From Phycisphaerales bacterium (GTDB lineage Bacteria; Planctomycetota; Phycisphaerae; WQYP01), in the NCBI GenBank assembly GCA_027451365.1, contig DAIDJN010000041.1, positions 89,679-153,678 on the forward strand: a stretch of 64,000 bases of DNA, in the 5' to 3' direction. Below, piece by piece: positions 9,334 through 60,886 of this stretch (position 1 is the first letter of the stretch; each line of letters begins with the position of its first letter). A model generated the notes under the pieces. That model ran no database searches. It was given only the letters and a program-made list of their open reading frames with translations, and had not been told where the DNA came from. The position numbers were made by a program, and so were the translations under genes.

Positions 9334-11873
9334 TGAGCGGAAGTGAATATTATTTTGGCATAGACTTAGGCACCACCAATTCCAGTATTTCGCTTTGTCT
9401 GGACGGGCAAGTGCGGGTATTGCCCAACATGGACGGTGATCAAATCACACCTTCGGTGGTCCATGTGGATGAACTTGGCGTTATTCGCATCGGACGTCAG
9501 GCGTATGAATCTTGGGCGGTGGATCCGGCCAATACCCAGGCTGAATTCAAACGTTGGATGGGCTTCTCCGATGAGCTTGCTTTTCCCGCATCCGGGCGCA
9601 GCATTTCCGCGGAGGAACTTTCCGCCGAGGTCCTTAAATCTCTTTTGGCTGATGCCCAGCGGCACACCGGAGTGCGGCCCGAGTCTTCTGTGGTAACCGT
9701 TCCCGCCGCCTTCGGACAGTTGCAATGTGAAGCCACCACCCGTGCCGCCGCCCGTGCGGGACTTAAGATTGCACCACTGCTTCAGGAACCCATTGCCACA
9801 GCGATCGCCTATGGGGCGGATCCAACCGCTGGTGATCAGCGTTGGATGGTGTTTGATCTTGGTGGCGGCACGTTGGATATTGCCATAGTCTCCACGCGCA
9901 ACGGGCGACTGGCGGTGCTGGAACACTGCGGCGATAACCGCCTTGGTGGAAAAGATATGGATCGCGCGATTGCGTCGGATATTTTTATTCCCGCACTTGC
10001 CGGCGGCTTTACACTGCCGGATCAACAAAAGCAGCCAGCGGCCTTTAATCAATTATTTCGCCGGTTGGTGCGGCACGCAGAGATAGCAAAAAAAGTGCTT
10101 TCCACAACCGATTCCGCGAATATTTCCCTGCTTGATCTGGGCGTGGACAAGCAAGGGCGCCCCATGCAGATGTCGCTTACGGTGACACGATCTCAGATGA
10201 CCGCCGCAATTCAGCCACTCCTGGATCGCTGCCTTAGCCTGGCGCAACTGGCACTCACCAAGGCGCGTATGACCGCCAGTGGCCTGACGAGTGTCATTGG
10301 TGTCGGTGGGCCTGCCCGCATGCCCTGCATTCGGGACATGCTGGAGTCCAGCATGGGCATTGCAATGCGCTGCGACCTTGATCCAATGACAGTGGTTTCC
10401 CAGGGTGCGGCCCGATTTGCCGCCGCCAGCGATTGCCTGGGCGCGACTGGATTATCCGAAACGGATCAACCAGCGACCAGTGAAAGTGCTTCCATAAAAG
10501 TTCCTATTTCAATTTCGCATGAACGGTCCAGTGCCACGGTCTTATCGCCGGTAGGTGGCACGGTCCCGTTATCCGCGGGCATTGCAACTATCCGGTTGAA
10601 AAGGCGTGGTGGAAAAGTCGAATGGAACAGCGGCTTGATTCCTATTGTCAGCGGCCAGTTTTCCACCACTTTAAAATTGGATGAAAAAGCGGCCGTCACG
10701 CGGTTTGTTATTGAGGCCTTTGGCAAACAGGGTCAGGCTATTCCCGTTGATCCTTCCGGCTTTTCAGTCGCGTTGGCCATGCCGCTGGCCGCCGCCCCGC
10801 TTCCGCATACCATCGCGGTGGAATTAACCGACGTGCATGGAAATACTGTGTATGAGCCGATTTTTCAACGTGACAGTGCGCTGCCCGCGGAAGTCACCCG
10901 CAGCTATAGGGCGGAGGCGTCGCTGCGGCCCAGTGAGCCGGAAGGTCGTTTGCCGATTAAATTCTGGGAAATAGATGTATCGGAAGATACGTCAGAGCGC
11001 TGGTGGTGCGGCTGTGTGGAAATTTCCGCCACGAATTTAAGCCGTCCTGTTTCCGAAGGTGCGGAAATACAATTGAAAATCCGTATCGATGCATCCCGCA
11101 AGATTCATGTCAATGCCCATATTCCCTCGATTCATCAGACCTTTGCGGAAGATGTCTATCTGCCGGATCCGCCATCGGCAAGTTCTCATTTGCAAACACA
11201 GCTTGATTCCTGTTTTGACCGTTTACGAAGCGCCTGGCAGCGAATCTATTCCTCCGGCAAAGATGATTTGAAACCAACGTTAACCCGGATTCAGGAGGAG
11301 CTTGACGAAATGGCTTTGCAGACCGGATCGGTCATAGGGGCATCGCGCCGCATCGACCCGGATGTATTGTTGCGTCAGGCCGGGCTGCTGCGCGGGATAC
11401 GCATAAAACTGACGCACGTGGAAGAACAGTTGGTTTCAGAAATTGATCATGTGCTGCTGGTTAGAATTCAAGGCATCATGCGATTTACAGAGCAAATATG
11501 CCATGACCACGGCGATGCCGACGAACAAAAGCAATGTGCGGACTTGCGGCGGCGCTTTAACGGCTACAAATCTACCGGAGATTCCCGTGGCGTTCGCTGG
11601 ATTGAAATAGAACTGCGCCAATTGCAAAATCCGATACTCGAACGCATGCCCGAATACTGGACAGAGTGGCTTGAGGCGCTTAATTCGCCGGGGCGGTTTA
11701 ATTTTATTTCGCGACGCGAGGCGGACCAATGGCTGGGCAAAGCCAACGCGGCGGAGAAAGCAGGAGAGCAGACGGAAATGCGCCGGTGTATTCGCGCCTT
11801 ATGGAGCCTTCTACCCGATCGCGATCAGGCGGCACGCAACCGCGATTCGCAAACGGGTTTGCGGGGCGGATAA
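9334..11873 (+). CDS. Atypical Hsp70-family ATPase (846 aa) with non-canonical C-terminal half
   Basis: Hsp70 nucleotide-binding-domain signatures 'YYFGIDLGTTNSSISL' (phosphate-1) and 'VFDLGGGTLDIAIV' (phosphate-2). GTG start at 9334 after AAAGG. The ORF-track start at 8991 is an upstream artefact that overlaps the previous gene. Confidence 0.8.
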
Positions 11874-24095: not shown

Positions 24096-26993
24096 TCATT
24101 GTGCTCGCAGCCGCAGCATCGACCCTTTACGAGTTGTCCATTGGAGGACCTTTCCGGAAATCTGCCGCGTCGGACCGTTGTTTAATCGCACCAGTACGCT
24201 TTTTCCCGGCCACGGATTGGCCACGCGACAAATGCCGCCGCGCTGACTGACAATGTTTACAAAGTCAATTTGGCCCGCCTTTAACCGGCTGGAAACGAGA
24301 AAATCTCCGCAGGCCAGCAAATTCCGGAATGCCGCATCCTGATTCCGCGGCCAATCCGGAAAAATATGAATATCATGTTGATAACTCTGTAGAAACATCG
24401 CGCAAATGGTAGTCGGCACAATGGCAAAATTCTCTGTTCCACCTCCGCCCATCTGAAATACGAAATTGGGATATGAACAATGGTCGATCAGCGTGTGCAG
24501 GTGATGCAGAATTTTATCCGGGTTGTAGCCCACGCAGGCCGCCGCCGGATAATAGCTCGAATCGTTGTTGTAGTCATACCATATCTGAAAAATCTGAACT
24601 GTATTAAGCCCGGCTTTCAAAAGCCGGGGGGAACTTTCCAGGCCAATGGCCCAGCCCGGAAAAATGGCCTGCGACGGATTCATGCCGGCACTGGATCCAT
24701 GAATGCCATGCCAGCCGGGATGTCCCCAATGGCTGCGAATAACCGGCCCACTCCAGGCGGTGCCCTTCTGTGTGTAACGAATCACCAGCTTGTTGTGCAT
24801 GCCCGCCGGGCCGAAAACCTTCGCCGCCGGAAATATCGGAAGCGGTGCCAGATGCCGCAATATTCGCCGCCAGGTGGTGGCCGCCGGGTCGCGCAATTGA
24901 AGTGTCCGATTCATATCCAGCAGGCCCGCATACAGCATCCGCAGAAACGCGATGCTTGTCGCGGGGTTTTCGTCATGGGCGCGGCTTAATTCATCCGCCG
25001 CGTCGTTTTCATCGACATAGACGCCATTCTTAAGCACCAGATAATGATCCCAGAATGCCGCAGTGCCGCGTAAGAATGGATAGATCATCCGTGCGTATTG
25101 GGGGCTGCGCGTGTAACGCCATCGCATCAGGCAATCCACAGCGCCGAACAGCGCATCAGATTTCTGCTGCAATGCCCTGGCGCCGTCGGCCGACCACCCC
25201 GGTGGCGGACTTAGGTGGCAATGGTAATAAAGCCCTTTAAAGCCGCGCAGCTTCGCCAGTCCGCGGCCGCGCGCCATCCAGGCCAGAAGCGGCAGGTCAT
25301 AATTGTCGGCCAGTCCAATGTGATTGGTGGGATAGGCCGCCCAGCAGGGGGCTTCATAATTGTAGTCCAAAGTATAATCGCCGTTCCAGGCCATCCACGG
25401 ACTGGTAATAAAATTGCCCCATAACCCCGGCGCAATGTGTCCCGGCGCACTGCAGCACGCAAATAGATATAAAGATCCATAATAAAACGCCTCAATCCGT
25501 TTGTCCGGAATTTCAACGGTGGATTTATTCCAGAAATGCTTCCACCACATGAGTTCTTTGTGCCTTAGAACAGAAAGCGATTCAAGCCGCATTTGGCCCA
25601 GCAGGCGCAGCGTGGCGGCGCGGTAGTGAAGTGTATCGTGATCATCCAGGGCCGAAATCAGCACTGTGGCGGATTCCCCGGCACCCAGGGAAATGGTTCC
25701 CACCCCTTTGTTCACACGGGCAATCTGTCCGATAATCCGTACCGCCAGCAACCCCTTTGGGCCGCACCCGTCGAATGCCAGTTGTGAATCTCCGGGGTGA
25801 ATGGCGTTCCAGTCCCACACAGGCCCGGCCACCTGCGCCGTTGTGGGAAACGCGCGGCTTGTCGCCACCAACTTTCCCCCCACGTATAAGCCAAGAGATC
25901 GGCCGTTGTAACGCACCGCAAGTTGCGACCAGGCGTTCAGCGGCAATGGTTGCGGGTCGATAATACGCACACGATTGAGCATGGCCGTGACCTTGCCATT
26001 TGCCAGTGACAGAGAAAAGCCGTACGGAATTCGCGGCTGGCCCCCGCCGGGCCAGTGGGTCCATCGCTTGGTGGTCATGGCGCTGAAAATAGCTTGGGTG
26101 CCTGCCGCGGATTTTGGATTGACCGAGGTCTGAATGTCAAAGGCCCTTTGCGGCAGCCGCAAAAAGCCGCAGTCAAATGAAGTTGGGCCAGCTGCGGCAG
26201 ATTTCGAATCGCTCCGCTGGATCAGGAACGAAAACCGTGGCTTGGCCGCGTGCCGCGGCGCGGCGGAGGCGTAAATCCGCATATTCTTTATGGGACCCGA
26301 AAAATGTTTGGAATTTTCGCGTCCCGTCGGCTGCCCAATGCGCGCCTGCACCGTATCCGGTGATACCTTCAGCCACGAAATGCCGCCAGTATTGCCTCCC
26401 ATGCCTTTTGAACCCGGCGTGCCCCAGCCGTCCAGAAGTGCTGAACTTATCGTCAGAGTTCCTTGCCCGGCGTTCCGCAGCTTCACCACCAGCAGATTTT
26501 GCGGTTTGGCTACCCACGCTGTAAACCGCAGCGCGTGGCCATCATGCGACGTAAAATGTCCCGTGACTTCAGCGCGGCCAATACGTTCAACTGTTTTATA
26601 ACTCCCATCATGTAAAGCGGGAATGGAAAGCACGACTCGGCCGAAAGGCATTATGCGGCCGCGAAACAGACTCCAGAAATCTTCTCGCCCAAGAAACAGT
26701 GAAATATGATCAGTATTGCGCCCCTGAATCGCGACGCCCAGGCTGCCATTGCCCAGCAGCGCGCCGTCGGGAAAATTGTTCGCCGGCGCATGCGTGGGAA
26801 CTTGCGTGCGCACGCCGGAAATGTGCTGAACAATATTCCATGTTGACGGAGGTGGATTTCCCGTTATCGCCGCTGCAACAAATGCCGGGCCTCCTGCCAG
26901 CAGATTCACCGCCAGACTGACGGAAGGCAGCGCTATAACGCAAAAAGAACGGACCATCAGACTTTTGGCGGTCAGATTATTTCCATACAGCAT
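24096..26993 (-). CDS. Large secreted glycoside-hydrolase-like protein (GH95-like (alpha/alpha)6 core) with inserted concanavalin/LamG-like domain
   Basis: Signal peptide. 'WMAWNGDYTLDYNYEAPCWAAYPTNH' resembles the GH95 'W.G.YT.N.N.EMNYW' block. LamG-like segment 'LAVRYNGRSLGLYVGGKLVATS'. Family assignment is tentative. Confidence 0.45.
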   Translation of the reverse strand: MLYGNNLTAKSLMVRSFCVIALPSVSLAVNLLAGGPAFVAAAITGNPPPSTWNIVQHISGVRTQVPTHAPANNFPDGALLGNGSLGVAIQGRNTDHISLFLGREDFWSLFRGRIMPFGRVVLSIPALHDGSYKTVERIGRAEVTGHFTSHDGHALRFTAWVAKPQNLLVVKLRNAGQGTLTISSALLDGWGTPGSKGMGGNTGGISWLKVSPDTVQARIGQPTGRENSKHFSGPIKNMRIYASAAPRHAAKPRFSFLIQRSDSKSAAAGPTSFDCGFLRLPQRAFDIQTSVNPKSAAGTQAIFSAMTTKRWTHWPGGGQPRIPYGFSLSLANGKVTAMLNRVRIIDPQPLPLNAWSQLAVRYNGRSLGLYVGGKLVATSRAFPTTAQVAGPVWDWNAIHPGDSQLAFDGCGPKGLLAVRIIGQIARVNKGVGTISLGAGESATVLISALDDHDTLHYRAATLRLLGQMRLESLSVLRHKELMWWKHFWNKSTVEIPDKRIEAFYYGSLYLFACCSAPGHIAPGLWGNFITSPWMAWNGDYTLDYNYEAPCWAAYPTNHIGLADNYDLPLLAWMARGRGLAKLRGFKGLYYHCHLSPPPGWSADGARALQQKSDALFGAVDCLMRWRYTRSPQYARMIYPFLRGTAAFWDHYLVLKNGVYVDENDAADELSRAHDENPATSIAFLRMLYAGLLDMNRTLQLRDPAATTWRRILRHLAPLPIFPAAKVFGPAGMHNKLVIRYTQKGTAWSGPVIRSHWGHPGWHGIHGSSAGMNPSQAIFPGWAIGLESSPRLLKAGLNTVQIFQIWYDYNNDSSYYPAAACVGYNPDKILHHLHTLIDHCSYPNFVFQMGGGGTENFAIVPTTICAMFLQSYQHDIHIFPDWPRNQDAAFRNLLACGDFLVSSRLKAGQIDFVNIVSQRGGICRVANPWPGKSVLVRLNNGPTRQISGKVLQWTTRKGSMLRLRAQ

Positions 26994-45875: not shown

Positions 45876-46586
45876 TTATGGGCGCGGTGGATTGGATTTA
45901 ATCTTATTCGTATCAAGTGTGACCGCGCCATGCCGGGCCAGGGCGCCGCCATCCTGAATTGACGCACTGTTCATTATGATAATATCCGTGGTGGCAAGAA
46001 TGGTGCCTTCAAATGCGCTGTCCGCCCCAAGGGTGGCCGAACTTCCCACCTGCCAGAACACAAAATTCCTTGGCTCAGATCCATTGCCACGGTTAATGGA
46101 AATAACGGCTGATTTGGTGCCGGTGGTCAGAGTTGTCCCGATCTGAAATACAAACTGGGCTTTTTTATTGCCTTGGCAGTCAAGTGTGAGTATCCCGTTG
46201 AGAGTTGCCAACGACGAAAAATAATATACCCCGGGCAGCAGCGTTAACCCGCCCAGGTCCTGGCCGCTTAAATCGTGGGTCGGTTTCATCCCCTGAACCG
46301 CTTTGTAAGCGGCGGTAAGATCAATATGCGCTTTGCGGGCGACATCATCGGCCATTCGCTTGGCATGGGGCGATAAGACAATACCCGGCGGGAAGCCGGT
46401 GATATCCTCGCTGTGACTGGTTCCCACATGGCCTCCATGCACCGCGGTATCGCCGGTATTCGTGACCGCGGTACCGCCCAACACCGCAAAATTGGCGGCG
46501 GAATCTAAAATAAATTGAACCGGCGCGTGCAGCGGAAGCGTGCCCAACGGTGCAACCACCAGCATAACAAGTGTTTTATTTACCAT
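45876..46586 (-). CDS. DUF3494 (ice-binding-protein-like beta-helix) secreted protein
   Basis: AAGGAG RBS. Signal peptide. 'AANFAVLGGTAVTNTGDTAVHGGHVGTS...ITGFPPG' matches the DUF3494/IBP family start. Confidence 0.7.
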   Translation of the reverse strand: MVNKTLVMLVVAPLGTLPLHAPVQFILDSAANFAVLGGTAVTNTGDTAVHGGHVGTSHSEDITGFPPGIVLSPHAKRMADDVARKAHIDLTAAYKAVQGMKPTHDLSGQDLGGLTLLPGVYYFSSLATLNGILTLDCQGNKKAQFVFQIGTTLTTGTKSAVISINRGNGSEPRNFVFWQVGSSATLGADSAFEGTILATTDIIIMNSASIQDGGALARHGAVTLDTNKIKSNPPRP

Positions 46587-46978
46587 GGCCAATTCTCCTT
46601 TTTCACACACCGCCGCGTGGGGATGTGCGAATATGGCGCGACTGATCTTCGGTTGGGCATCGTGGAGAACGAGCTAAAGGAAAGCTGGATTCCGGGTGGG
46701 CGTCGGGGCGACTCATGCCAAGGTTTCTAAACCAACCCGCGCGAGCCGTGCGACTTCAAGCGGCCATGCTCTAGCACACTTGAATTATCAGTATAGCAGC
46801 AATTGGCGTACCGTGGTGGATTTGGTTAATTATTTTTAAAGATAGGCGGGCGGCTATCACACAGCCGGACACATAAACCGGTCAATATCAGGAAAGTCCG
46901 GATATACCTGACTTTAGTTTCTGCAAAGCCGGGGTGCTTATTGTCCGGGAATCGTCAATTTTGCCCAATTCATTCGAA

Positions 46979-47797
46979 TTATGTCCGGCGGCTGCGCCAG
47001 CGTGTCGTAAGTGTGTAAATTCCCACCAGGCCCGCCCCGGCCAACACAAGTGTTGCTGTGGCTGGCTGGCCAACTGCCGCCGGCCCGGTATTGATATTGC
47101 TGCTGGCGCAGTTACTGATGGTGTTGGCATCCAGTGTTACCGCGCCATTGCGTGCCAGAGCGCTGCCGTCGGTAATTGTGGCACCAGTATTCAACGTAAT
47201 GCTGGTTAGCGCAAGAATATGTCCTTCAAATGCGGTTCCTGTGCCCAGCGTGGCGGAACTACCCACCTGCCAGAACACATTGCAATCTGGTGTTGAACCG
47301 GAATTCAGAACCACAACCGAAGCGTTGCTGGCCGTGGTCAGCGTGCTGCCTATCTGAAAAACAAACTGCGCGGCCGAATTGCCCTGGTCATTAAGCGTCA
47401 GTGTTCCAGTAAGGCCCGCAGACGAAGAGAAAAAGTAGGTGCCCGCCGTTAGTGTTAATCCGCCCAGGTTCGTTCCTGTCAGATTCTGCGTGGGGGCTAA
47501 ACCTGCGCATGCATTGTAGGCCGTTGTTAAATCACTCTGAGCCTGACTGGCGACTGCATTGGCGGAGTCCAGTGTGTATGGAGATGTCACACTTCCCGGC
47601 GGAAAGCCGGTAATCGCCGTGCCCGGACTTACTCCCACATTTCCCCCATCTATAACCGTGTTACCTGTATTGGTCACGGTTGATCCGGCCAATACCGCGA
47701 AATTTCCCGCCGTGCCCAGCACCACGGCGGCTGGTACCGCCGCCGGGGAAACTGTTAATATCACCAACGCGGAAAAAATGATAGTCTTGGTAAACAT
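46979..47797 (-). CDS. DUF3494 (ice-binding-like) paralogue with C-terminal PEP-CTERM-like anchor
   Basis: GGAGG RBS. 'AGNFAVLAGSTVTNTGNTVIDGGNVGVSPGTAITGFPPGS' is collinear with the upstream paralogue. Tail 'GQPATATLVLAGAGLVGIYTLTTRWRSRR'. Confidence 0.7.
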   Translation of the reverse strand: MFTKTIIFSALVILTVSPAAVPAAVVLGTAGNFAVLAGSTVTNTGNTVIDGGNVGVSPGTAITGFPPGSVTSPYTLDSANAVASQAQSDLTTAYNACAGLAPTQNLTGTNLGGLTLTAGTYFFSSSAGLTGTLTLNDQGNSAAQFVFQIGSTLTTASNASVVVLNSGSTPDCNVFWQVGSSATLGTGTAFEGHILALTSITLNTGATITDGSALARNGAVTLDANTISNCASSNINTGPAAVGQPATATLVLAGAGLVGIYTLTTRWRSRRT

Positions 47798-48342
47798 TGG
47801 TCGCCTCCATTTACTTTTGTCGCCGGGTGGCGATACCAAAAGGTCGCATTTAAATAAAAAGCTGGAAGCCCTATAATTAGCCCGCCCCGCTTTTATATGT
47901 CCCAGCCATCCCGTTGAGATTGCCGAAATGATGACTAATCTCGATTACTATGTGTATGCAAACCATGTGCCGTGTTGGGTAAATCATTAAGTTGACTGAA
48001 TTCATAAAAGTTCTTGCGATCTTGGGGCTGCTTGCCGAGATTCAGTTACAGATGCGACGCAGAGGGGGCGGCAATAACGCCGCCGCCGGACATAATGTCG
48101 CGGACATTTTGTCCCAGTCGGTTGGCGAATTGCGTAAACAGGCAGAAAATTGCTGGCCAAATAATATTATTGCCAAAGGTATGGATATTGCATGGTAGTA
48201 CGTGGGGTTGTTCACGATTTTATTAATTGCGTCCCATTTTTTACCTGCGCAGAGCGTTCGGGTTGGGCGTCAGCCGCGTTCGCCAAGTCTCATTGGCTTG
48301 CTTGTAGGTGCAAAAAGACAAGATTGACCGCGGCTCGGTTGG

Positions 48343-48452: not shown

Positions 48453-48875
48453 TTACCACTTTTTTAACAGGTATCTACGATCTATGCGATTCCAGGAATC
48501 GCGCACGGCCTGTCTGGCCGTATCCCAGTTTAATGTGGATTTACCCCTATGTGCCGCCCAGTCCCGTATCAAAATCAGTTCAACTTCCGCGAATAGGCGG
48601 GGATCATAAAACACCCGCGCTTCCCAGCCATATTGGTAGGCCGGGGCGTATTCTTCGTACGACACACCGGCCCTGACGTATGGACGTGAGTAATATGTCG
48701 ACCGCCAGAACCCATGTTCTACGACCGGGTCAAGTTCATTTATCGGGTCTTCGTTCATCTGGTCACCGCCTCGGTTTGGATGTTGCGCCTCGTCGGTTGT
48801 CTTAGGTACTGATAGCGGATCGGCTGAACTGAATTTCGGAATGGCTCTCTCAAAATTGACATCATGCAGCGTCAT
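48453..48875 (-). CDS. Hypothetical protein (140 aa)
   Basis: ORF with a downstream terminator. Tyr/Trp/Arg-rich. No family recognised. Confidence 0.4.
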   Translation of the reverse strand: MTLHDVNFERAIPKFSSADPLSVPKTTDEAQHPNRGGDQMNEDPINELDPVVEHGFWRSTYYSRPYVRAGVSYEEYAPAYQYGWEARVFYDPRLFAEVELILIRDWAAHRGKSTLNWDTARQAVRDSWNRIDRRYLLKKW

Positions 48876-49251
48876 GGTTCGACTTCTCCAATCATTCCTG
48901 CGGCATATCCATTGGCTGCCCGCCTAGTGCAGCAACACAGAATTCACTGAAGAAATTTCGGGAAACTTCCTCATGCCGGTTGTTGTATGCAATTGGTGTG
49001 CCGCTTTTCAAATCAAGTGCGTACCAAGGCCAATTTTCATGGCATGCTGGCGGCGCGAAATGGCTCATGTGGTGCATAAATCTGGCCGCAAACGATCGCA
49101 TGGCATATTTATGCCCGATTGTGCCGTTGGGCAGTTCGCCTGTAGCAGATCACATGCTGCCGTTGCCTGTCAGCCCGTTCTGACCGAACAACTCGCCAAA
49201 ATGTCGCGGACATTTTGGCATTGCCGGCGCGTTTTGGATTAAGAAAGCCGA

Positions 49252-49286: not shown

Positions 49287-49410
49287 CCCGTCGGCATTGC
49301 AATTGCAATAACAATAGTGCGCCTGCAGGTGGCAGGTATGTTGCCTTGCTTTGCGCTGGGGCGCGGAAGGCCATGCTGGCATTTGTCGAATGACTTATCG
49401 GGGATTCAAT

Positions 49411-50316
49411 ATGCCTGAACCAATGCGGCAATCGGAAAGCGGGTCGGCCGTCCCGGCTATTTTATCTCCGACTGGTGATCACGCCGTGAAAACGCTTGAA
49501 TCGCTGCACCGGTATATGTTGCTTGTCGCACAACATCTGGAGGAAAATGTGCACCGCATATCCATGCCGGCCCGCGGCCGGGAAGGGCCGCCTTTCGGCG
49601 AGACGCTGGACCGCATTATCCGCAAATGTGTTCATGACCTGCAATCCCTGACGCATTCCATGGCGGGAGAACTCGCGCAACGCGCGGCTCTTGAACAGCA
49701 GTTGCTGGCCACCCAGACCGTTGCCGAGCAATATCGGCAGATGGCCTTTCATGATCCGGTGACCGCGTTGCCCAACCGCATTCTGCTGCACGACCGGCTG
49801 GATATCGCCCTGGCCCAGGCCAGGCGACATAAACGTTCGTTTGCGGTTCTATTTATAGACATTGATAAATTCAAATATATAAATGATACGTTCGGACATG
49901 CCGCCGGCGATACCATTCTGCGGCTGATTGCCGACAAGCTGCGGGGCTGTATGCGAACCGAGGACACCGTAAGCCGCGCCGGCGGGGATGAATTTCTCTG
50001 CCTCCTGATGGAAGTCAAAAACCAAGACGCGGTAAAATCTGTCGCCGAGTGCATGTTCGCCCAAATCGCCCAGGCTGCGGGTACCGTTGGCTTTAATATC
50101 GCGGTGAAACTCAGTGTTGGCTGTGCCATGTGCCCGCTGGATGGCGTAACCCCCGAAATCCTTTTGCGAAACGCCGACAAGGCCATGTACCGCGCTAAGA
50201 GGGCCGGGACAGGCCTGGCCTTTTGTGATGACCATGCCGCGGATATTGATAACACATGGAAGGACAACTCCATCTCTTCGTCAGCCATGAGAATGCCCAC
50301 AAGTTATCGCTGTTGA
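49411..50316 (+). CDS. GGDEF-domain diguanylate cyclase with N-terminal coiled-coil
   Basis: 'FHDPVTALPNRILLHDRL', 'FIDIDKFKYINDTFGHAAGD', 'SRAGGDEFLCLL' (intact GGDEF). Confidence 0.8.
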   Translation: MPEPMRQSESGSAVPAILSPTGDHAVKTLESLHRYMLLVAQHLEENVHRISMPARGREGPPFGETLDRIIRKCVHDLQSLTHSMAGELAQRAALEQQLLATQTVAEQYRQMAFHDPVTALPNRILLHDRLDIALAQARRHKRSFAVLFIDIDKFKYINDTFGHAAGDTILRLIADKLRGCMRTEDTVSRAGGDEFLCLLMEVKNQDAVKSVAECMFAQIAQAAGTVGFNIAVKLSVGCAMCPLDGVTPEILLRNADKAMYRAKRAGTGLAFCDDHAADIDNTWKDNSISSSAMRMPTSYRC

Positions 50317-50339
50317 AAAGCCGGGGCGCCCAAACTGCG

Positions 50340-51490
50340 GTCCTTAAACTGATGTGCGTAAGCTGACGTGCATAAACTGGGGGTCGGGCGTCTCGCCCGA
50401 TATCGCAATTGAATAAGGAGACCTTAATTTGAGGTCCTTAAACTGATATGTTTAAACTGATATGTTTAAACTGATGTGTTGAAGCTGATGTGCTTAAGCT
50501 GGGGGTCGGGCGTCTCGCCCGACATGTCATCCCCACCGGCGGCCAGGATGGCCGCCCCCCACGAAGACTGTTTACAATCCGCAAGCAAATGGCGACAAGG
50601 CGCGCCACCAGATCGCCCTCACCCACGCCAAGATTTACCTCTCGCCCGATATCGCAATTGAATAATGAGACGTTAATTTGAGGACCTTAAACTGATGTGC
50701 CTAAGCGGATGTGTTTAAGCTGATGTTCTTAAGCTGATGTGTTTAAGCGGATGTGTTTAAATTGGGGGTCGTGCGTCTCGCCCGACACGTCATCCTCACC
50801 GGCGGCCAGGATGGCCGCCCCCCACGAAGACTGTTTACAATCCGCAAGCAAATGGCGACAAGTCGCGCCACCAGATCGCCCTCACCCACGCCAAGATGAA
50901 GTCTCGCCCGATATCGCAATTGAATAAGGAGACGTTAATTTGAGGTCCTTAAACTGATATGTCTAAACTGATGTGCGTAAACTGATATGCTTAAACTGAT
51001 GTGTTTAATCTGGGGGTCGGGCGTCTCGCCCGACACGTCATCCCCACCGGCGGCCAGGATGGCCGCCCCCCAGGAAGACTGTTTACAATCCGCAAGCAAA
51101 TGGCGACAAGTCGCGCCACCAGATCGACCTCACCCACGCCAAGATGTACATCTCGTCCGATATCGCAATTGAATAATGAGACGTTAATTTGAGGTCCTTA
51201 AACTGATGTGCCTAAGCGGATGTGTTTAAGCTGATGTTCTTAAGCTGATGTGTTTAAGCTGATGTGCTTAAGCTGGGGGTCGGGCGTCTCGCCCGACATG
51301 TCATCCCCACCGGCGGCCAGGATGGCCGCCCCCCAGGAAGACTGTTTACAATCCGCAAGCAAATGGCGACAAGTCGCGCCACCAGATCGCCCTCACCCAC
51401 GCCAAGATGGACACCTCGCCCGACATGTCATCCCCACCGGCGGCCAGGATGGCCGCCCCCCACGAAGACTGTTTACAATCCGCAAGCAAA
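50340..51490. repeat. Modular nested tandem-repeat array (about 4.5 units of roughly 250 bp). Each unit has four modules: M3 (37 bp, 'tatcgcaattgaataaggagacgttaatttgaggtcc'); M4 (4-5 tandem 14-bp direct repeats 'TTAARCTGATGTGY'); M1 (palindromic hairpin 'gggggTCGGGCGtctCGCCCGA'); M2 (about 127 bp, containing the hairpin 'GGCGGCCaggatGGCCGCC' and ending with a second 'tctcgcccga').
   Basis: Direct inspection. Units at about 50401-50649, 50650-50912, 50913-51160, 51161-51423, plus an extra M2 copy to 51490. Copies are more than 95% identical. The first unit (50380-50401) lacks M2 ('empty site'). No ORF is conserved across units in a fixed frame, because the 14-bp period shifts frame. Confidence 0.9.
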
Positions 51491-51606
51491 GCGCGATAAA
51501 AAGCGTCATCGCGTCGCAAGTCGCCACTTTGACCCGGCCATTATGGCCCGGCCGTCAGGCGCGGCCCGCCGCTTAACAAAAAACGCCGCTTTGGCCCAAA
51601 AAATAT

Positions 51607-51623
51607 GTGGCACATGAATTGCT
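51607..51623 (+). promoter_or_regulatory. Sigma-54 (-24/-12) promoter: TGGCAC-N5-TTGCT
   Basis: 'gTGGCACatgaaTTGCTt' has the GG and GC dinucleotides separated by exactly 10 nt, as in the RpoN consensus (TGGCACG-N4-TTGCW). It is 64 bp upstream of the DUF3309 start. Confidence 0.6.
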
Positions 51624-51686
51624 TAATATACTGGCGTGGTTTTAAATTGACCACGGGTGGGGAACAAAACTGAAAGGCGTGTACTC

Positions 51687-51851
51687 ATGGGTTTGATTTT
51701 GCTTGTTGTATTGGTCCTGATCATGCTTAGTGTGCTTCCCACGTGGGGTTACAGTCGTCAATGGGGTTATGGCCCGACTGGTGGTCTGGGTGTCATTCTT
51801 CTAATCGTCATTGTGCTGGTATTAATGGGTGTTATTCCCGGTAGATTTTAA
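51687..51851 (+). CDS. DUF3309-family small membrane protein (about 54 aa)
   Basis: 'MGLILLVVLVLIMLSVLPTWGYSRQWGYGPTGGLGVILLIVIVLVLMGVI' has two TM helices and the conserved 'PTWPYSR.WGY.P.GGLG' core of DUF3309. The ORF-track start at 51657 is probably too long. Confidence 0.6.
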   Translation: MGLILLVVLVLIMLSVLPTWGYSRQWGYGPTGGLGVILLIVIVLVLMGVIPGRF

Positions 51852-52124
51852 ATATCATCGCGCGTCGCCTTCAAGAAATAGCCGTATTTAGTGTCGGAAC
51901 GCATTAAAAAGCGCGGAGTGTGGAACAAAATATTCCCGAGGTTTCTCTCATGCGGGCGGGCGGTGCACCCCGCGCACATGGGCTGGATGTCGGCGAATTT
52001 CCCGGAAAATTGCCCGGTTTCAATTGGTCTGTCCAATAACGGGCGAATTTTCCAAAGTGGTTTGATGTGCGTGGCCTTCAGATTAATCTGACCTGCCGCG
52101 ATATCAAATAGTATTTAAGGAGAC

Positions 52125-52919
52125 ATGAAAATGTTTCGTAAAAACATCACAACGTGGTTGTCCGCCGGAGCTGTCGCTTCGCTGGCCTTATCCGGCGCCG
52201 TTTCCGCGGTGCAGGCTCAGCCGGTTATTGAGTACAGCCTGAACAATGGCGCCACCTTCACCAGTCTGGCTAATCCCAGCGCCATCAACACCATCGTGGA
52301 TGGTTCGATCGGCGCATTTACCGTCACCAGTCTTTCGGCCCTGGCGGTGAACAACAGCAGTCTTGCTAATTTGAATCTCGGAATGGCCAGCATCAGTTTT
52401 GCCGCCACTCCTGGTTCAACCGTCAGCAATGTCAATATTCTGTTCCAGGCCAGCGCTACCGGATTCACTTATGATCCCGTCGGCGTGAATTTCCTGGAAT
52501 CAGCGGGTTCGGCCACCCTGCTTCATGTGGCGTCATCCACTGGCGATTCCCTTTCACTTAAGGGTGGGTCGGACACGGGTAATAATCTCTTTACCTTCAC
52601 CACCACATCCAACCCGGTCGGGAGTCCGTTTGTATTCGCTGGTTCCACCTCTTCAGGAACCGAAAGTTCCAGTTTTGGAATTGACCCTGTGCCGAATCCA
52701 AGCATTAATTCCACGGGCTATTCGCTGACCACCACATTGGATTTTACCAGCTTTTACGTGGGTGATATTTATAACAATCCGTCATCCACAGTCACCGTCT
52801 CCAATACCGAGCCGCTTTCGGCAGGCGCCGCGCCACTGCCCGCGACCGGTCTTCTGACCCTGGTGGGGGGAATCGCCATGATTGGCGGAGTGGCGATCCG
52901 TCGCCGCCTGAAGGTCTAA
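52125..52919 (+). CDS. Secreted Ser/Thr/Asn-rich protein with PEP-CTERM-like tail (variant PLPAT)
   Basis: GGAG RBS. Signal peptide 'AVASLALSGAVSAVQA'. C-terminus 'AAPLPATGLLTLVGGIAMIGGVAIRRRLKV'. Confidence 0.6.
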   Translation: MKMFRKNITTWLSAGAVASLALSGAVSAVQAQPVIEYSLNNGATFTSLANPSAINTIVDGSIGAFTVTSLSALAVNNSSLANLNLGMASISFAATPGSTVSNVNILFQASATGFTYDPVGVNFLESAGSATLLHVASSTGDSLSLKGGSDTGNNLFTFTTTSNPVGSPFVFAGSTSSGTESSSFGIDPVPNPSINSTGYSLTTTLDFTSFYVGDIYNNPSSTVTVSNTEPLSAGAAPLPATGLLTLVGGIAMIGGVAIRRRLKV

Positions 52920-52956
52920 GCCTCTTAGGCCCTGTTAAACAAACTGTCTCTTCCCC

Positions 52957-52996
52957 AAGGCGGGGTGGCCACTGTGGGGCTCCCCGCCTTTTTTTC
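52957..52996 (+). terminator. Rho-independent terminator
   Basis: Stem AAGGCGGGG...CCCCGCCTT followed by TTTTTTT. Confidence 0.6.
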
Positions 52997-53165
52997 GCGC
53001 CGATAAAGCACTGCGCACTCTTGGTTCAGGAATCCCGGCTGAACGTCCGCAAAAATTGCGCCCCGCCAATAGCCGCCCGCAAACCGCCAACCCCATTCCA
53101 GGCTCAATTATGCAGACTGGCGTAAATTAAGGGTGGCCCGCGCGAAAAACGGCTCATGCGCAAAC

Positions 53166-53282
53166 CGGGTGTCGGGCGTCTGGCCCGACGAATTGTTCCC
53201 ACCGGCGGCCAGGATGGCCGCTCCCGTCAAGACTGTTTACAACCCGCAAGCAAATAATGACAAGACGCGCCACCAGCTCAAC
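53166..53282. repeat. Diverged solo copy (about 80% identity) of the M1 hairpin plus M2 module from the 50.3-51.5 kb array
   Basis: 'ggtgTCGGGCGtctGGCCCGAcgaattgttcccaccGGCGGCCaggatGGCCGCtcccgtcaagactgtttacaacccgcaagcaaataatgacaagacgcgccaccagctca' aligns collinearly with the M1-M2 consensus. Confidence 0.7.
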
Positions 53283-53468
53283 AGCGTTCACACATTAACC
53301 TACGCCTTCCCCGACGGTTGCAATTCAATTGGCCAGGCATCAACTCCGGCGGCTACGAATGGCCGCCCGTCAAGAATATTTGCCGTCAGCAAGTGGTTTG
53401 TGATATGACACGTCTGGTGATCAAACCCAGTGCGCTTTGCCATGAAATTGTTCAGTCAATAAGTCCGG

Positions 53469-54980
53469 TTATGCGGGGGAATGCGGCGTTCGGGAATCTG
53501 CGGCGGTGGCACGGTTTATATCCGTGCGAAGCAGCACCAACGAAGGTGTTTCCTGGCGTCCCAGCTTGCGCTGCAACGTTCGCACGCTGATGCCAATTGC
53601 GTGGGCCGCGCGCGTTTTATTATTGTGGTGCCGCTGCATGGCCGCTTGTATGGCCAATTGTTCAAGTTGCGCCAGTGTCAGAAGTGGCTCATCTTCGTTC
53701 GTGGAAATATAACTGGAAATTATCGTCGGCGGGACAACCGGTGCAAGGCCCCGCTGTGTCGGGGCTATCGCCAGCGCCCCGGATGCGTCTTGTATGGCCG
53801 GCGGCAGGTCCTTCAGACTGATGACCGTATTGTCGCGGTCTGACAGCACCATTGCGCGCTCTATCACGTTCAGCAGTTCTCTTACGTTTCCGGGCCAGTG
53901 ATAGCGTTGCAGGGCCTCCATCGCCGGGATGGAGATGGAATCAATCGGTGTGGCGATATTCCGCAGATTCACATGCTCAATAAAATAGCGCACCAGCAGT
54001 GGTATATCATCAAGGCGAGCCCGCAGGGGCGGTACACGGATGGTGATGATGTTCAGGCGATAATATAAATCTTCACGAAATAAGCCTTCCCGTACCATAT
54101 TTGGCAAATCTCGGCTCGTGGCCGCAATCACGCGCGTATTTACCTTGATCTCGCGATGGCCGCCCAGCGGGGTGACAATTCTATTTTCCAGAATTCGCAG
54201 AAGCTTCGCCTGAAGAGACAATGCGCAATCGCCAATCTCATCAATAAAAAGTGTGCCGCCGCTGGCCGCCTCAAACCGCCCGATTCGCGAACCGACCGAT
54301 CCGGAAAAGGCCCCCTTGTCGTATCCGAATAATTCACTTTCCACCAGCGTTTCCGGCATGGCCGCACAGTTTAAAGCAATAAACGGTCCCGTTTTTCTCT
54401 GCGAATTCCGGTGAATGGCCTGCGCCACCAGGTCCTTACCTGTGCCCGATTCGCCAAGAATAAGGACTGTGCTGAACGCCCGTGAAGACCGGGCAATCAA
54501 ATCAAAAACATCCCGCATGAGCTGGGATTGACCAATGATATGGTCATTGACACCATCGCCAATTTCCGGCGTGGGGGGCTTCTGTTCGTTCTGGCACGCA
54601 TGAATCAGGTCCATCAGGCGGGACAGCATCAGCTTTGCATCGGTTACATTTTGCAGATCATCAAATGTGCCCGTGTTAATGGTTTCAATCAGGGATTTCA
54701 CGGATTCGGTTTCATGAATAACCGGCAAAGGTGTGTTCGGAAAATAATTTCGCCAGTGCTTAATCAGGTCCAGACGCGATATGTCTCCGGATATAACCCC
54801 AGCCACAACGCAATCAATGCCCTCGCCCACAAAACTCAGCGCCTTTTCCGCGGAATCCGTGGTTTTGACAACATAACCCGCGTTGGTCAGCAACTGTTCC
54901 AGCGCGGCACGCTGGCTCGGATTGTCTTCAATCACCAGTATTTCATATTGATCAGTTTGATCACTTTTTTGAGAAGTCAT
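53469..54980 (-). CDS. Sigma-54-dependent transcriptional activator (NtrC-family bEBP): receiver-like domain, AAA+ domain, Fis-type HTH
   Basis: Walker A 'GESGTGKDLVAQAIH'. GAFTGA-equivalent 'YDKGAFSGS'. 'ESELFGY'. C-terminal 'RAAHAIGISVRTLQRKL' HTH. The N-terminal receiver-like domain appears to lack the canonical phospho-acceptor Asp. Confidence 0.85.
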   Translation of the reverse strand: MTSQKSDQTDQYEILVIEDNPSQRAALEQLLTNAGYVVKTTDSAEKALSFVGEGIDCVVAGVISGDISRLDLIKHWRNYFPNTPLPVIHETESVKSLIETINTGTFDDLQNVTDAKLMLSRLMDLIHACQNEQKPPTPEIGDGVNDHIIGQSQLMRDVFDLIARSSRAFSTVLILGESGTGKDLVAQAIHRNSQRKTGPFIALNCAAMPETLVESELFGYDKGAFSGSVGSRIGRFEAASGGTLFIDEIGDCALSLQAKLLRILENRIVTPLGGHREIKVNTRVIAATSRDLPNMVREGLFREDLYYRLNIITIRVPPLRARLDDIPLLVRYFIEHVNLRNIATPIDSISIPAMEALQRYHWPGNVRELLNVIERAMVLSDRDNTVISLKDLPPAIQDASGALAIAPTQRGLAPVVPPTIISSYISTNEDEPLLTLAQLEQLAIQAAMQRHHNNKTRAAHAIGISVRTLQRKLGRQETPSLVLLRTDINRATAADSRTPHSPA

Positions 54981-55506: not shown

Positions 55507-56118
55507 TTAAATGCCTATGCCGACGACCACCATCGGTACCGCCGGACTGCTTCTCCCCTGACGAATAAGATCGTAAAGGCCGCCTTCGTAATATCCGACG
55601 CCCGAGGACATCTGTGATTGAAAGTGTTTTATTGGAAGTATTTCGATGCCTACATCAATGACGTCGCCCACGAAAAAAGCCATATGCTTTACAAACATGT
55701 CGTAAGCCACAAAAGAATATTTGCCAAATTGTATTTCCAGGGCGATGCGATCCTTCACGAAATCGGTCTGATTGTAGGATTTAATAGGTGTTTTGCTGGC
55801 CTTCTCGATCTCGTGTTTTTGCTGATCCGGCTGTAAAGTCAACGTCCGGCGAATAAGCTGATGATCAGATGTGACCCAATAATAAGTGCGGGATTCCTTC
55901 CAGCCAAGCGGGCCGAGTGCTCTTGTAAAAGCGCTGTTCATGGCGACGGGGCTGTAAAGCGTTCGCCCTCTCATGGTTTTCTCACGGGAGATTTTCGTAC
56001 GGCATTTCTCGGCGTCAATACCTTCGATGACCTCTTCAACTTCTTTCCACAATTCCGGTTTGTGAACCAAGATATGTTCATGACCGTTAAGATGCGAATA
56101 AAGCGCGTGAATCTTCAC
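55507..56118 (-). CDS. Type II restriction endonuclease, BglII/BstYI-like
   Basis: 'HILVHKPELWKEVEEVI' and 'FVKDRIALEIQFGKYSF' parallel BglII ('EILNPQLWKEILETL', 'DFGKRDTLVEVQFSNYPF'). Overlaps the methyltransferase stop by 4 nt. Local GC is lower than in flanking DNA. Confidence 0.55.
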   Translation of the reverse strand: MKIHALYSHLNGHEHILVHKPELWKEVEEVIEGIDAEKCRTKISREKTMRGRTLYSPVAMNSAFTRALGPLGWKESRTYYWVTSDHQLIRRTLTLQPDQQKHEIEKASKTPIKSYNQTDFVKDRIALEIQFGKYSFVAYDMFVKHMAFFVGDVIDVGIEILPIKHFQSQMSSGVGYYEGGLYDLIRQGRSSPAVPMVVVGIGI

Positions 56119-57098
56119 GATTGGCCCCCGCTGGGCAAGGTGGGGTCGTAAATCGGCCTGTCCATCGGACGAGTTTTAAGCAGACCGGCACGCAGAGACT
56201 CAACGCGGTTCTGGGCAATTTGAACATAACGCGGATCAATATCGCACCCCACGCCATCGCGGCCGTTTTTAATTGCCGCTATTACGCTGGTTCCCGCGCC
56301 CATATAAGGGTCGAAGACCGTTTGGCCCGCCCTGGTCATGGAAAGCACCAATCGTTCCACCAGTTCAACCGGAAATTGGCACGGGTGTGCGGTTTTTTCC
56401 ACATGGTTTGCCTTTACATTTGGTATCAACCACACATCTCCCGGATTTTTACCCAACGGATTGCAGGAGAACTGCCCGGCCCGCGGACCTTTGAAATATT
56501 TCTTTCCCGGATATTTCGACGGTACCCGAATCGGATCCAGATCGAATACATAATCATCCGATTTGGTGAACCACAGGATCACTTCGTAGCGTCCGGAAAA
56601 TCGCTTGGTGCAATGCAATCCGTGCGCAAAATGCCAGACAATGCGATTTCGCAGCATCAGGCCATGTTTTTTGAAAATTGGGTATAGCACAACGTCCAGC
56701 GGAACAACTTCGCGTTCCAGACTGATGTGATTGCCGACCTGCCAGCAAATTGAGCCATTCGGACGCAGGAGGCGAACGCATTCCGCGATAACTTGTTCCT
56801 GCGATTGAATATAGCCGCCCAGACTGTTGCGCCGCTCATATTCTTTGCCAATATTATACGGTGGTGAGGTAATGATTAACTGTGCCAGGGCATCGGGCAG
56901 AGTCGCCATAAATTTAAGGTTATCCTGACAGGCGATGGTTGCGTCGCCTAATTTCAGGGAATCGGCGGAGGGGTTATGGTCGTACGAAGAGAAGAGTGTA
57001 GGCGTCATAATACGAACCGCTCCATTGTATGACTTGATTGAAATATACCATAGAGGACCAATTTTCGCACCAGTCGCTGATTTTCCGCGGACCGGCAA
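56115..57098 (-). CDS. DNA methyltransferase (beta-class N4-cytosine/N6-adenine, 'SPPY' type); cognate of the BglII-like REase
   Basis: Catalytic motif IV 'ITSPPYNIG'. AdoMet motif I 'VFDPYMGAGTSVIAA'. ParB-less small MTase architecture typical of Type II systems. Confidence 0.8.
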   Translation of the reverse strand: MPVRGKSATGAKIGPLWYISIKSYNGAVRIMTPTLFSSYDHNPSADSLKLGDATIACQDNLKFMATLPDALAQLIITSPPYNIGKEYERRNSLGGYIQSQEQVIAECVRLLRPNGSICWQVGNHISLEREVVPLDVVLYPIFKKHGLMLRNRIVWHFAHGLHCTKRFSGRYEVILWFTKSDDYVFDLDPIRVPSKYPGKKYFKGPRAGQFSCNPLGKNPGDVWLIPNVKANHVEKTAHPCQFPVELVERLVLSMTRAGQTVFDPYMGAGTSVIAAIKNGRDGVGCDIDPRYVQIAQNRVESLRAGLLKTRPMDRPIYDPTLPSGGQS

Positions 57099-59785: not shown

Positions 59786-60886
59786 ATGTTCAAACGTCTG
59801 TTTCTTGCCATATTTCTGCTGGTTATAATTGGCGGATTGCTGGTGGCTATTTTTGGTTTTAAGGCATTTATAAACCGGAAAATAGCCAACGTCATGGCGC
59901 ATCTGCCGGTGCCCCCCGTGACGGTTTCCACCGCCAAGGCCGGTAATGCTTCCTGGCCGGTGAATCTGTCTGCGGTAGGTTCACTAACCGCGGTGCAAAG
60001 TGTGGATTTAACCGCACAAATATCGGGCAATGTGACGGGAATCTATTTTCATTCCGGCAAGGAAGTCAAGCCGGGGCAATTGCTTCTGCAAATTGATAAT
60101 TCAACCCAATTGGCTCAACTTCGTGTGGACCAGGCGAATCTGGCCCTGGCAAGAACCAATTTGGCCAGAACGATTAAGCTGATCAAGGTTCGCGCCGCTG
60201 CGCAATCACAACTTGATACCTATCGGGCCAATGTGGCTACAGCGTTGGCGCAGGTTCAATCGGACAATGCCACTCTGGCCAAACTGGCCATTCGCGCCCC
60301 GTTTGCCGGCTATCTGGGGCTGCGGCAAGTCAGTCTGGGGCAGTTTGTCGCACCGGGAACATCCATTGTGACGCTGAATTCGTGGCAGCCGATTTACGCG
60401 GTGTTTTCTATTCCGCAGAATAATATTGCCGCTCTGGCAATGGGCCGTAAAGTGACGTTGCGCGTCAACAGTTTTCCCGGACGCGTATTCACGGGAACCA
60501 TATCAGCGATTTCTTCACAGGTGGATGTGAATTCGCGGAATGTTCAGGTGCAGGCGACGTTTCCCAATAAAATGGAATTGCTTAAACCCGGCATGTTCGG
60601 TGATATTTCCGTGGCGACGGGCAAGGTGCTGCACGTGACTGTTGTCCCGGCGCTTGCCGTCGCCTACAGCACATTTGGGGATTATGTCTATGTGGTAAAA
60701 AAGACCGGCAAGGGAAAAAAGGTTGTCCTGACCGCCAAACAGATTCTCGTGCATCCTGGATTGCAACGTGGAGATATGGTGGCCATTACTTCCGGCATTA
60801 AGGCCGGCCAGACCGTTATAACCGTCGGGCAGATCAAACTTCATCCTGGCGCTGTCATTTTAATTAATAATTCAGTCAAGCCCTGA
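59786..60886 (+). CDS. RND efflux periplasmic adaptor (membrane fusion protein, AcrA/HlyD family)
   Basis: N-terminal TM anchor. Coiled-coil hairpin. Lipoyl/beta-barrel motifs ('AIRAPFAGYLG'). Confidence 0.8.
   Translation: MFKRLFLAIFLLVIIGGLLVAIFGFKAFINRKIANVMAHLPVPPVTVSTAKAGNASWPVNLSAVGSLTAVQSVDLTAQISGNVTGIYFHSGKEVKPGQLLLQIDNSTQLAQLRVDQANLALARTNLARTIKLIKVRAAAQSQLDTYRANVATALAQVQSDNATLAKLAIRAPFAGYLGLRQVSLGQFVAPGTSIVTLNSWQPIYAVFSIPQNNIAALAMGRKVTLRVNSFPGRVFTGTISAISSQVDVNSRNVQVQATFPNKMELLKPGMFGDISVATGKVLHVTVVPALAVAYSTFGDYVYVVKKTGKGKKVVLTAKQILVHPGLQRGDMVAITSGIKAGQTVITVGQIKLHPGAVILINNSVKP

Follow-up and report, generated by a model that had tools for sequence, protein, structure and literature searches.

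A predicted sigma-54 promoter with a short conserved upstream site at a DUF3309 gene of a Phycisphaerales bacterium, next to a species-specific repeat array

Introduction

In the proteobacterial PEP-CTERM box/PrsR system, anchored secreted proteins are encoded in single-gene units, which are preceded by long intergenic regions with an upstream motif and a -24/-12 promoter, and an NtrC-like activator is encoded nearby (Haft et al. 2006, PMC1569441). The subject of this study is a comparable arrangement in another phylum: a gene for a 54-amino acid (aa) protein of the DUF3309 family together with its predicted sigma-54 promoter, located in 64,000 nucleotides (nt) of DNA from a Phycisphaerales bacterium of the Planctomycetota (assembly GCA_027451365.1, contig DAIDJN010000041.1, positions 89,679 to 153,678 of the forward strand). 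This whole stretch is referred to as the window, and positions are counted from its first letter. An original prediction made from the sequence had assigned the enhancer of this promoter to a conspicuous array of 14-mers upstream of it. We find that the promoter is kept in seven other loci of the Phycisphaerae and that its enhancer is likely to be a short conserved site close to it, whereas the array is missing from all of these relatives.

The PrsR system is the closest precedent, since the window likewise appears to hold ice-binding-like and other C-terminally anchored proteins in a shared regulon. However, the candidate activator encoded in the window reaches only 299.7 bits against the PrsR model TIGR02915 (cut-off 502.6; residues 70-384 only) and none of the NCBIfam equivalog cut-offs, it carries a pseudo-receiver, gene calling in the neighbourhoods that were fetched gave no PrsK-type kinase gene, and the predicted regulon adds DUF3309, DUF892 and a diguanylate cyclase. 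By this comparison, the locus would resemble the PEP-CTERM box system without being a member of it.

With NtrC and the NtrC1 protein of Aquifex the activator shares the order of receiver, AAA+ domain and Fis-type helix-turn-helix, and the locus resembles glnAp2 in having a pair of palindromic sites about 100 nt ahead of a GG-N10-GC element; it differs in the loss of the receiver's Asp (to Gly), Thr and Lys, in a GAFSGS loop and in the distance between the units of its site, which is only 14 bp centre to centre. FleQ-type sigma-54 activators possess a receiver-like domain without a functional phosphorylation site and are controlled by partner proteins or ligands. They are the closest analogue for the non-phosphorylated receiver-like domain described here, but there is no sign of cyclic di-GMP binding or of a FleN-like partner at the window locus, and the adjacent diguanylate cyclase gene offers no more than a suggestive link. 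The PspF-psp system is a sigma-54 regulon with very small inner-membrane proteins that serves the envelope-stress response, and PspF lacks an N-terminal domain; however, no PspA homologue was seen at the window locus, and the Psp proteins are not related to DUF3309. Plasmid iterons and centromere-like arrays also consist of short direct repeats in tandem clusters, but the 14-mers of the window are embedded in a 263-bp repeat, neither the open reading frames (ORFs) nor the genes called on either side of the array include a replication or partition gene, the locus has a chromosomal character and relatives lack the array. A module of sigma-54 promoter, upstream site and activator is thus of a known type, and its specific features are the pseudo-receiver clade of the activator and a defined motif with its spacing.

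The promoter of the DUF3309 gene

The product of the DUF3309 gene matches PF11752 over profile positions 1-50 of 50 (E = 7.8e-20, 71.2 bits, gathering threshold 22.3), and an identical protein is encoded on ten same-species contigs, which include two metagenome-assembled genomes at NCBI. As had been predicted, a -24/-12 motif, TGGCAC-ATGAA-TTGC (TGGCACATGAATTGC), lies in the intergenic region upstream of it on the + strand (51608-51622, with GG at 51609-10 and GC at 51621-22) and points at the gene, whose ATG at 51687 is located 64 nt past the GC. It is the only exact match to TGGCAC-N5-TTGC in the window. Since 0.34 such matches are expected by chance, and 28 of 100 shuffles of the window contain at least one, the exact match alone is not significant.

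Orthologous loci were found in two ways, i.e. from the contexts of activator orthologues and by a metagenome scan with a DUF3309 alignment. In seven Phycisphaerae orthologues, as in the window, a GG-N10-GC element occupies the same position upstream of DUF3309, with GG, AC and TTGC invariant over all eight loci and with variable spacer and flanks (Table 1), while the DUF3309 proteins are 74-96% identical. In six of the seven relatives, identity to the window over the 150 nt located 5' of the element amounts to 55-61%, which corresponds to the level of shuffled controls (57%), and the sister locus L095 reaches 69%. An element that is kept while its flanks have diverged to the shuffled level is the footprint expected of a functional -24/-12 element.

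The match could also be fortuitous, with the DUF3309 gene being transcribed by a sigma-70-family polymerase. The frequency of matches in shuffled windows would be compatible with this, as would the lack of such a site at most DUF3309 genes in other phyla. However, chance does not account well for an element that is retained at the orthologous position in eight loci amid mostly unalignable DNA and that is accompanied by an upstream motif at a fixed distance (see below), and no sigma-70-like hexamer pair was found on the + strand of 50300-53500. We therefore regard a fortuitous match as highly improbable. The DUF3309 gene very probably has a genuine sigma-54 promoter and would be transcribed with this sigma factor, a reading that is strongly supported, while the partnership with the neighbouring activator, treated below, is moderately supported.

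The original prediction had suggested a look at DUF3309 genes of relatives for the same kind of promoter. The seven Phycisphaerae orthologues bear this out, but the family as a whole does not: of 52 non-redundant DUF3309 loci, 12 carry a site with a score of 9/12 or more within 200 nt upstream on the sense strand, compared with only one on the antisense strand. Four of these 12 belong to the Phycisphaerae clade and four to one other closely related group (L141-L154), with TGGTCCGTGGATTGCC at -73. Sigma-54 control is thus not general in the DUF3309 family, though it may recur. A high-GC DUF3309 lineage (L141, L144-L148, L150, L151, L154) carries TGGTCCGTGGATTGCC or TGGAACATCGATTGCC about 73 nt before the start, which may represent an independent link to sigma-54 in an intergenic region of only about 180 bp.

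The predicted enhancer site

Clade loci were scanned with a 12-position sigma-54 score, and for 31 of the sigma-54 sites found, the preceding 240 nt were compared with 615 background pieces. The most enriched 7-mers were GGACAAA, CGGACAA and CCGGACA, which occurred in 13-14 of the 31 upstream regions and in 25-38 of the background pieces (p 1e-10 to 1e-8); for CCGGACA/GGACAAA the counts were 14 and 25 (p about 1e-10). The underlying motif consists of two 15-nt near-palindromic units, CGGACA-WWW-TGTCC, placed 14 bp apart, as exemplified by ACCGGACAAAATGCCGCGGACAAATTGTCCGG in L175 and by CGGACATAATGTCGCGGACATTTTGTCCC at 48087-48115 of the window.

A matrix was built from 20 of these units, leaving out the DUF3309 region of the window. 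In this region lies a unit pair (Table 1), of which the strong unit, CGGCCATTATGGCCC at 51535-51549, begins 73 nt upstream of the first T of TGGCAC. Although it had no part in building the matrix, this unit scores 16.0 bits, a level reached by about 5e-5 of the window positions. In six DUF3309 loci outside the training set, the best upstream score had an empirical P of 0.008-0.03. All eight DUF3309 loci have units that start at -73 to -76 and/or at -87 to -91, counted from the first base of the promoter motif, and this fixed geometry is the strongest argument for the site at 51521-51549 as the enhancer.

The array had been described as the only sequence upstream of the promoter, which is not the case: positions 51491-51607 are unique sequence, and the first about 60 nt of it, including the predicted site, are shared with L095, where the array is absent. 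From the conserved geometry, we consider the short site at 51521-51549, and not the 14-mer array, the likely enhancer of the DUF3309 promoter. The A-tracts noted in the original prediction are present, one at 51497-51501 and two A6 tracts between the site and the -24 element (Table 1). The A6 tracts may bend the DNA, and A/T-rich DNA is found just upstream of the -24 element in most relatives as well.

The enhancer-unit matrix also scores 13-17 bits at 25717, 14510, 4331, 58116 and 60276-60337 of the window, and a weak sigma-54-like site, 59672(-), has the hits near 59958-60337 upstream of it.

The repeat array

The count of about 20 copies made for the array is accurate. There are 20 copies of the 14-mer TTAAGCTGATGTGY (up to three mismatches), all of them inside 50344-51266, and they are grouped in five clusters within a 263-bp higher-order repeat. 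Each 263-bp unit comprises 4-5 14-mers, a hairpin GTCGGGCG-TCT-CGCCCGAC, a palindrome GGCGGCCA-GGA-TGGCCGCC and a tail, in this order.

The proposal that these 14-mers are iteron-like sites of the neighbouring activator, which together form the enhancer of the DUF3309 gene, draws on their position upstream in the same intergenic region and on their 14-bp period, which is also the distance between the two conserved enhancer units. Moreover, enhancers can work from a kilobase away. Nevertheless, the array is missing at all seven relatives that keep the promoter (L095, L092, L104, L098, L094, L175 and L179), including L095, where the DUF3309 protein is 96% identical, the order of GGDEF and DUF3309 genes is the same and the intergenic region of about 375 bp contains neither a 14-mer nor the repeat core. 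Furthermore, the 14-mers are non-palindromic direct repeats whose score with the enhancer matrix does not exceed -2.9 bits, the last one stops 342 nt before the promoter while the conserved site lies at -73, and the number of copies apparently differs between contigs of the same species. An enhancer function of the 14-mers is therefore scarcely probable. Of the three-part module that had been envisaged, the iteron part is not supported, and the sigma-54 promoter of the small membrane protein gene is.

The array was seen only in same-species contigs, with 7 14-mers in L002, 9 in L001, 12 in L003 and 20 in the window, i.e. about 1.5 to 4.5 units. Several of these contigs break inside the repeat (L001-L004 and L010 were compared), so that the difference in copy number could be real or in part be due to assembly collapse. 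Because the array is limited to same-species contigs and is missing from the sister locus and from six more distant loci, we conclude that it is a recent insertion or expansion between the stop codon of the GGDEF gene (50316) and a pre-existing regulatory region. The array, with its apparently variable copy number, is not needed by the module. A solo copy of the repeat core is located between the convergent ends of the 264-aa and activator genes (Table 1), where L092 has only about 130 bp and no room for such a copy, which indicates that the core has moved or been copied outside the tandem array.

Each repeat unit carries a terminator-like hairpin on the - strand (50590-51384; TGGTGGCGCGACTTGTCGCCA then TTTGCTTGCG, with a weak T-run). 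One repeat unit folds modestly better than shuffled sequences (z = -2.0 and -2.5 on the two strands), and gene callers call no ORFs in the array on any same-species contig. Rfam searches with the array and promoter region gave no family at gathering or permissive thresholds, the only hit being Ysr35 at chance level (E = 1.5), and blastn of the region against a plasmid collection returned nothing. In viral contigs, a 14-mer dimer had no match and the palindrome had one isolated match, which we take as chance.

The array could still act in another way, namely through its GGCGGCCA-GGA-TGGCCGCC palindromes, one per 263-bp unit, which would provide additional low-affinity or decoy sites so that copy number tunes expression. 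The palindrome has the 6-3-6 form of the enhancer unit (CGGCCA-GGA-TGGCCG compared with CGGACA-AAA-TGTCCG) and closely resembles the proximal unit of the window, CGGCCA-TTA-TGGCCC. In addition, the 27-nt sequence CCACCGGCGGCCAAGATGGCCACCCCC, nearly identical to the palindrome with its flanks, is found in the distant locus L175 (3835-3865, - strand; activator 66% identical), where an Ice_binding sigma-54 site that has no canonical unit follows about 115 nt downstream, and the homology to the window stops at the edges of this segment. However, the palindrome reaches only 9.7 bits against the matrix, a level met about once per 1.5 kb of the window, its centre is G-rich while all trusted units are A/T-rich at the centre, its five copies are identical by descent and hence no independent evidence, and the solo core between two convergent gene ends has no promoter to serve. 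Such a role of the palindromes appears distinctly unlikely. An extended version, for which the chances are smaller still, sees the 263-bp repeat as a copy-number-variable bank of GGCCA-GGA-TGGCC palindromes, derived from a site conserved across genera, whose expansion and contraction would tune or titrate the sigma-54 regulon, with the 14-mers as sites for a second protein. If this were true, the repeat would be a length-dependent rheostat acting on an enhancer.

The candidate activator

About 1.6 kb from the DUF3309 gene, as originally noted, lies a gene for an NtrC-family enhancer-binding protein with a degenerate receiver (Table 1). Its Response_reg match reaches 34 bits only, followed by Sigma54_activat (PF00158, E = 1e-66), AAA_lid_14 and HTH_8 (PF02954, E = 5.5e-11), and its best matches among solved structures are those of Aquifex NtrC1 (4L4U and 1NY5, E about 1e-79), with FleQ structures also among the matches. 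An alignment with Aquifex NtrC1 shows Gly (VVAGV) in place of the phospho-acceptor Asp, His in place of the Thr and Asn in place of the Lys. The same losses are found throughout the orthologues P0001-P0027 (at least 61% identical), whereas paralogues of about 50% identity keep D, T and K; the degenerate receiver is thus a stable property of a distinct clade and not a sign of decay. Activator homologues at 62-75% identity are annotated 'Phycisphaerae bacterium', which points to an uncultured member of this class as the source of the window. A contig scan with the activator protein returned only paralogues of 35-41% identity from other phyla, with patterns dominated by generic AAA+ peptides.

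For the assignment of this protein to the DUF3309 promoter, gene linkage is the main evidence. In five of eight contexts (the window, L092, L094, L175 and L179), no more than about 2.5 kb separates a DUF3309 gene from the activator orthologue, despite changes in order and strand, and a cluster of motif and promoter lies beside the activator orthologue in seven of the eight. In L104 and L112, the flanks of only about 3 kb do not allow the linkage to be judged.

It could be argued that the promoter and enhancer are real but are served by an activator encoded elsewhere, e.g. a paralogue with a canonical receiver, while the adjacent pseudo-receiver protein has other targets. All members of the orthologue group have the same helix-turn-helix, A(I)GISVRTLQRKL, which agrees with a common site, but the paralogues with canonical receivers (P0033 onward, about 50% identity) have almost the same recognition helix, ALGISVRTLQRKL, so that the assignment of the site rests mainly on linkage. 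For L093, L177 and L180, the flanks fetched around the activator orthologue yielded no DUF3309 gene call, and the short contig L098 contains no activator-sized ORF. Against this stand the two kinds of linkage described above, the first of which has outlasted rearrangement of gene order and strand, and we consider an activator encoded elsewhere to be unlikely. The neighbouring protein is a plausible, and by its linkage the most likely, partner of the DUF3309 promoter.

The DUF3309 unit and its neighbours

Downstream of DUF3309 follows a gene for a 264-aa secreted protein (Table 1) without Pfam or NCBIfam match, and the same gene order is found in L092 and L095. Neither a + strand terminator nor a sigma-70-like site was detected between the two genes, and no sigma-54 site scoring at least 10/12 precedes the 264-aa gene. 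A terminator-like hairpin with a T-run follows the latter at 52974-52997. The two genes may be co-transcribed. A conserved GGAAC...TTCC stretch was considered as a promoter of the 264-aa gene and rejected by eye, as it has no GC dinucleotide and its spacing varies between loci. The spacer between the two genes keeps two palindromes in the window, L095 and L092, GGTGCACC and ATTGG-N5-CCAAT (51962-51969 and 52023-52037), which may be sites for another regulator.

The window contains sigma-54-like sites at 46813(-), 47972(-), 49003(-), 49330(+) and 51608(+), each located before one of five consecutive transcription units, i.e. two ice-binding-like genes, a 140-aa gene, the GGDEF gene and the DUF3309 gene (Table 1). 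Sites equivalent to that of the GGDEF gene precede its orthologues in L093, L094 and L175, and in relatives sigma-54 sites are found before GGDEF, 180-aa, Ice_binding, DUF892 and DUF3309 genes. The gene set suggests an envelope or stress regulon as the putative physiological role: besides a diguanylate cyclase it has ice-binding-like anchored surface proteins and DUF892, together with ferritin-like neighbours and small membrane proteins. In Proteobacteria, comparable genes are often under the control of general-stress sigma factors.

The 140-aa protein and its relatives share a C-terminal segment, VEHGFWRSTY..RPY...G..YEEYAPAYQYGWE; for the window protein, neither Pfam nor NCBIfam gives a match. 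In L092 (3405-3776) this segment is fused to a glycine-rich hydrophobic region. The group looks like an undescribed family within the regulon. Farther along the window, a complete BglII-like endonuclease and an N6/N4 methylase are encoded at 55507-57098 (-), while L001 holds only an 83-aa endonuclease fragment (9821-10072), which is followed by a TetR gene; this restriction-modification system looks strain-variable.

Table 1 Features of the DUF3309 locus and of the adjacent sigma-54 units. Positions refer to the window; the last seven lines give the -24/-12 element in the individual loci.
Feature	Position	Strand	Description
Sigma-54 (-24/-12) element	51608..51622	+	predicted start at about 51633-51635; GG, AC and TTGC invariant across 8 orthologous loci
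Predicted activator site, unit pair	51521..51549		TCGCCACTTTGACCC (weak) + CGGCCATTATGGCCC (strong, near-palindrome), 14 bp apart
Two A6 tracts	51578-51583 and 51598-51603	+	20 bp apart, between activator site and -24; putative bending role
Block shared with array-less sister locus L095	51491..51549	+	GCGCGATAAAAAGCG.CATC.CGTCGCAAG..GCCACTTTG.CCCGGCCATT
DUF3309 gene	51687..51851	+	54 aa, two hydrophobic segments; Pfam PF11752
264-aa secreted protein gene	52125..52919	+	C-terminal hydrophobic segment + RRR anchor, PEP-CTERM-like
NtrC-family enhancer-binding protein	53469..54980	-	pseudo-receiver, AAA+ (GAFSGS loop), Fis-type helix-turn-helix
Composite tandem repeat	50332..51490	+	about 4-4.5 units of 263 bp; adjoins the module, not a conserved part
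Solo repeat core	53157..53282	+	two hairpins + tail, no 14-mers; 81-87% identical; between convergent ends of 264-aa and activator genes
Sigma-54-like site	49330..49346	+	TGGCAGGTATGTTGCCT, 65 nt before diguanylate cyclase (GGDEF) start 49411
Activator-site pair	49193..49221		TCGCCAAAATGTCGC + CGGACATTTTGGCAT, between divergent sites 49003(-) and 49330(+)
Sigma-54-like site	48987..49003	-	CGGCACACCAATTGCAT, upstream of 140-aa gene 48453..48875(-)
Activator-site pair	48087..48115		CGGACATAATGTCGC + CGGACATTTTGTCCC, 20.8 and 20.1 bits; about 125 nt upstream of site 47972(-)
Sigma-54-like site	47956..47972	-	CGGCACATGGTTTGCAT, upstream of ice-binding-like gene 46979..47839(-)
Sigma-54-like site	46797..46813	-	CGGTACGCCAATTGCTG, upstream of ice-binding-like gene 45876..46610(-)
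-24/-12 element, window			TGGCACATGAATTGCT
-24/-12 element, L095			TGGCACAAGAATTGCT
-24/-12 element, L092 and L104			TGGTACGGCAATTGCA
-24/-12 element, L098			CGGCACGGATTTTGCT
-24/-12 element, L094			CGGCACGTAAATTGCA
-24/-12 element, L175			TGGCACGGGAATTGCA
-24/-12 element, L179			TGGCACGACGATTGCA

Discussion

Taken together, the comparison of loci points to the following model. The DUF3309 gene, possibly together with the 264-aa surface-protein gene, would be transcribed from the sigma-54 promoter at 51608-51622, and an AAA+ enhancer-binding protein on the paired 15-nt units at 51521-51549 would activate transcription, with the A-tract-rich DNA between site and promoter helping the loop to form. 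The activator would most likely be the neighbouring protein 53469..54980, and its receiver without phospho-acceptor Asp implies control by something other than Asp phosphorylation. The DUF3309 gene would be one of at least five adjacent sigma-54 units, and the combination of promoter and motif recurs around activator orthologues in other Phycisphaerae. We consider this model as a whole, i.e. sigma-54 promoter, enhancer at 51521-51549, neighbouring activator and dispensable species-specific array, to be fairly probable.

Several points weigh against it, in addition to the chance level of the exact promoter match, the near-identical recognition helix of the paralogues and the three activator contexts that lack a called DUF3309 gene. 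The units of the enhancer matrix were curated by hand within the same clade, and some foreground sequences overlap, since divergent promoters share a region. The upstream unit at 51521-51535 is weak. No ORF with an RpoN box was found in the 64-kb window, and it is on account of the activator genes that the genome is assumed to carry rpoN. Finally, the sigma-54-contacting loop is GAFSGS in the subclade of the window, compared with GAFTGA in most orthologues; a Thr-to-Ser change in this loop is tolerated in PspF.

The analysis corrects the assignment of the enhancer, which is not the conspicuous repeat array. For the Phycisphaerae, which are little studied genetically, it offers a testable sigma-54 regulon with a promoter, an enhancer motif of fixed spacing and a candidate activator that would be non-phosphorylatable. 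DUF3309 has nearly no literature, with only two full-text papers mentioning it, each in passing, and the locus described here would provide the first regulatory context for this family.

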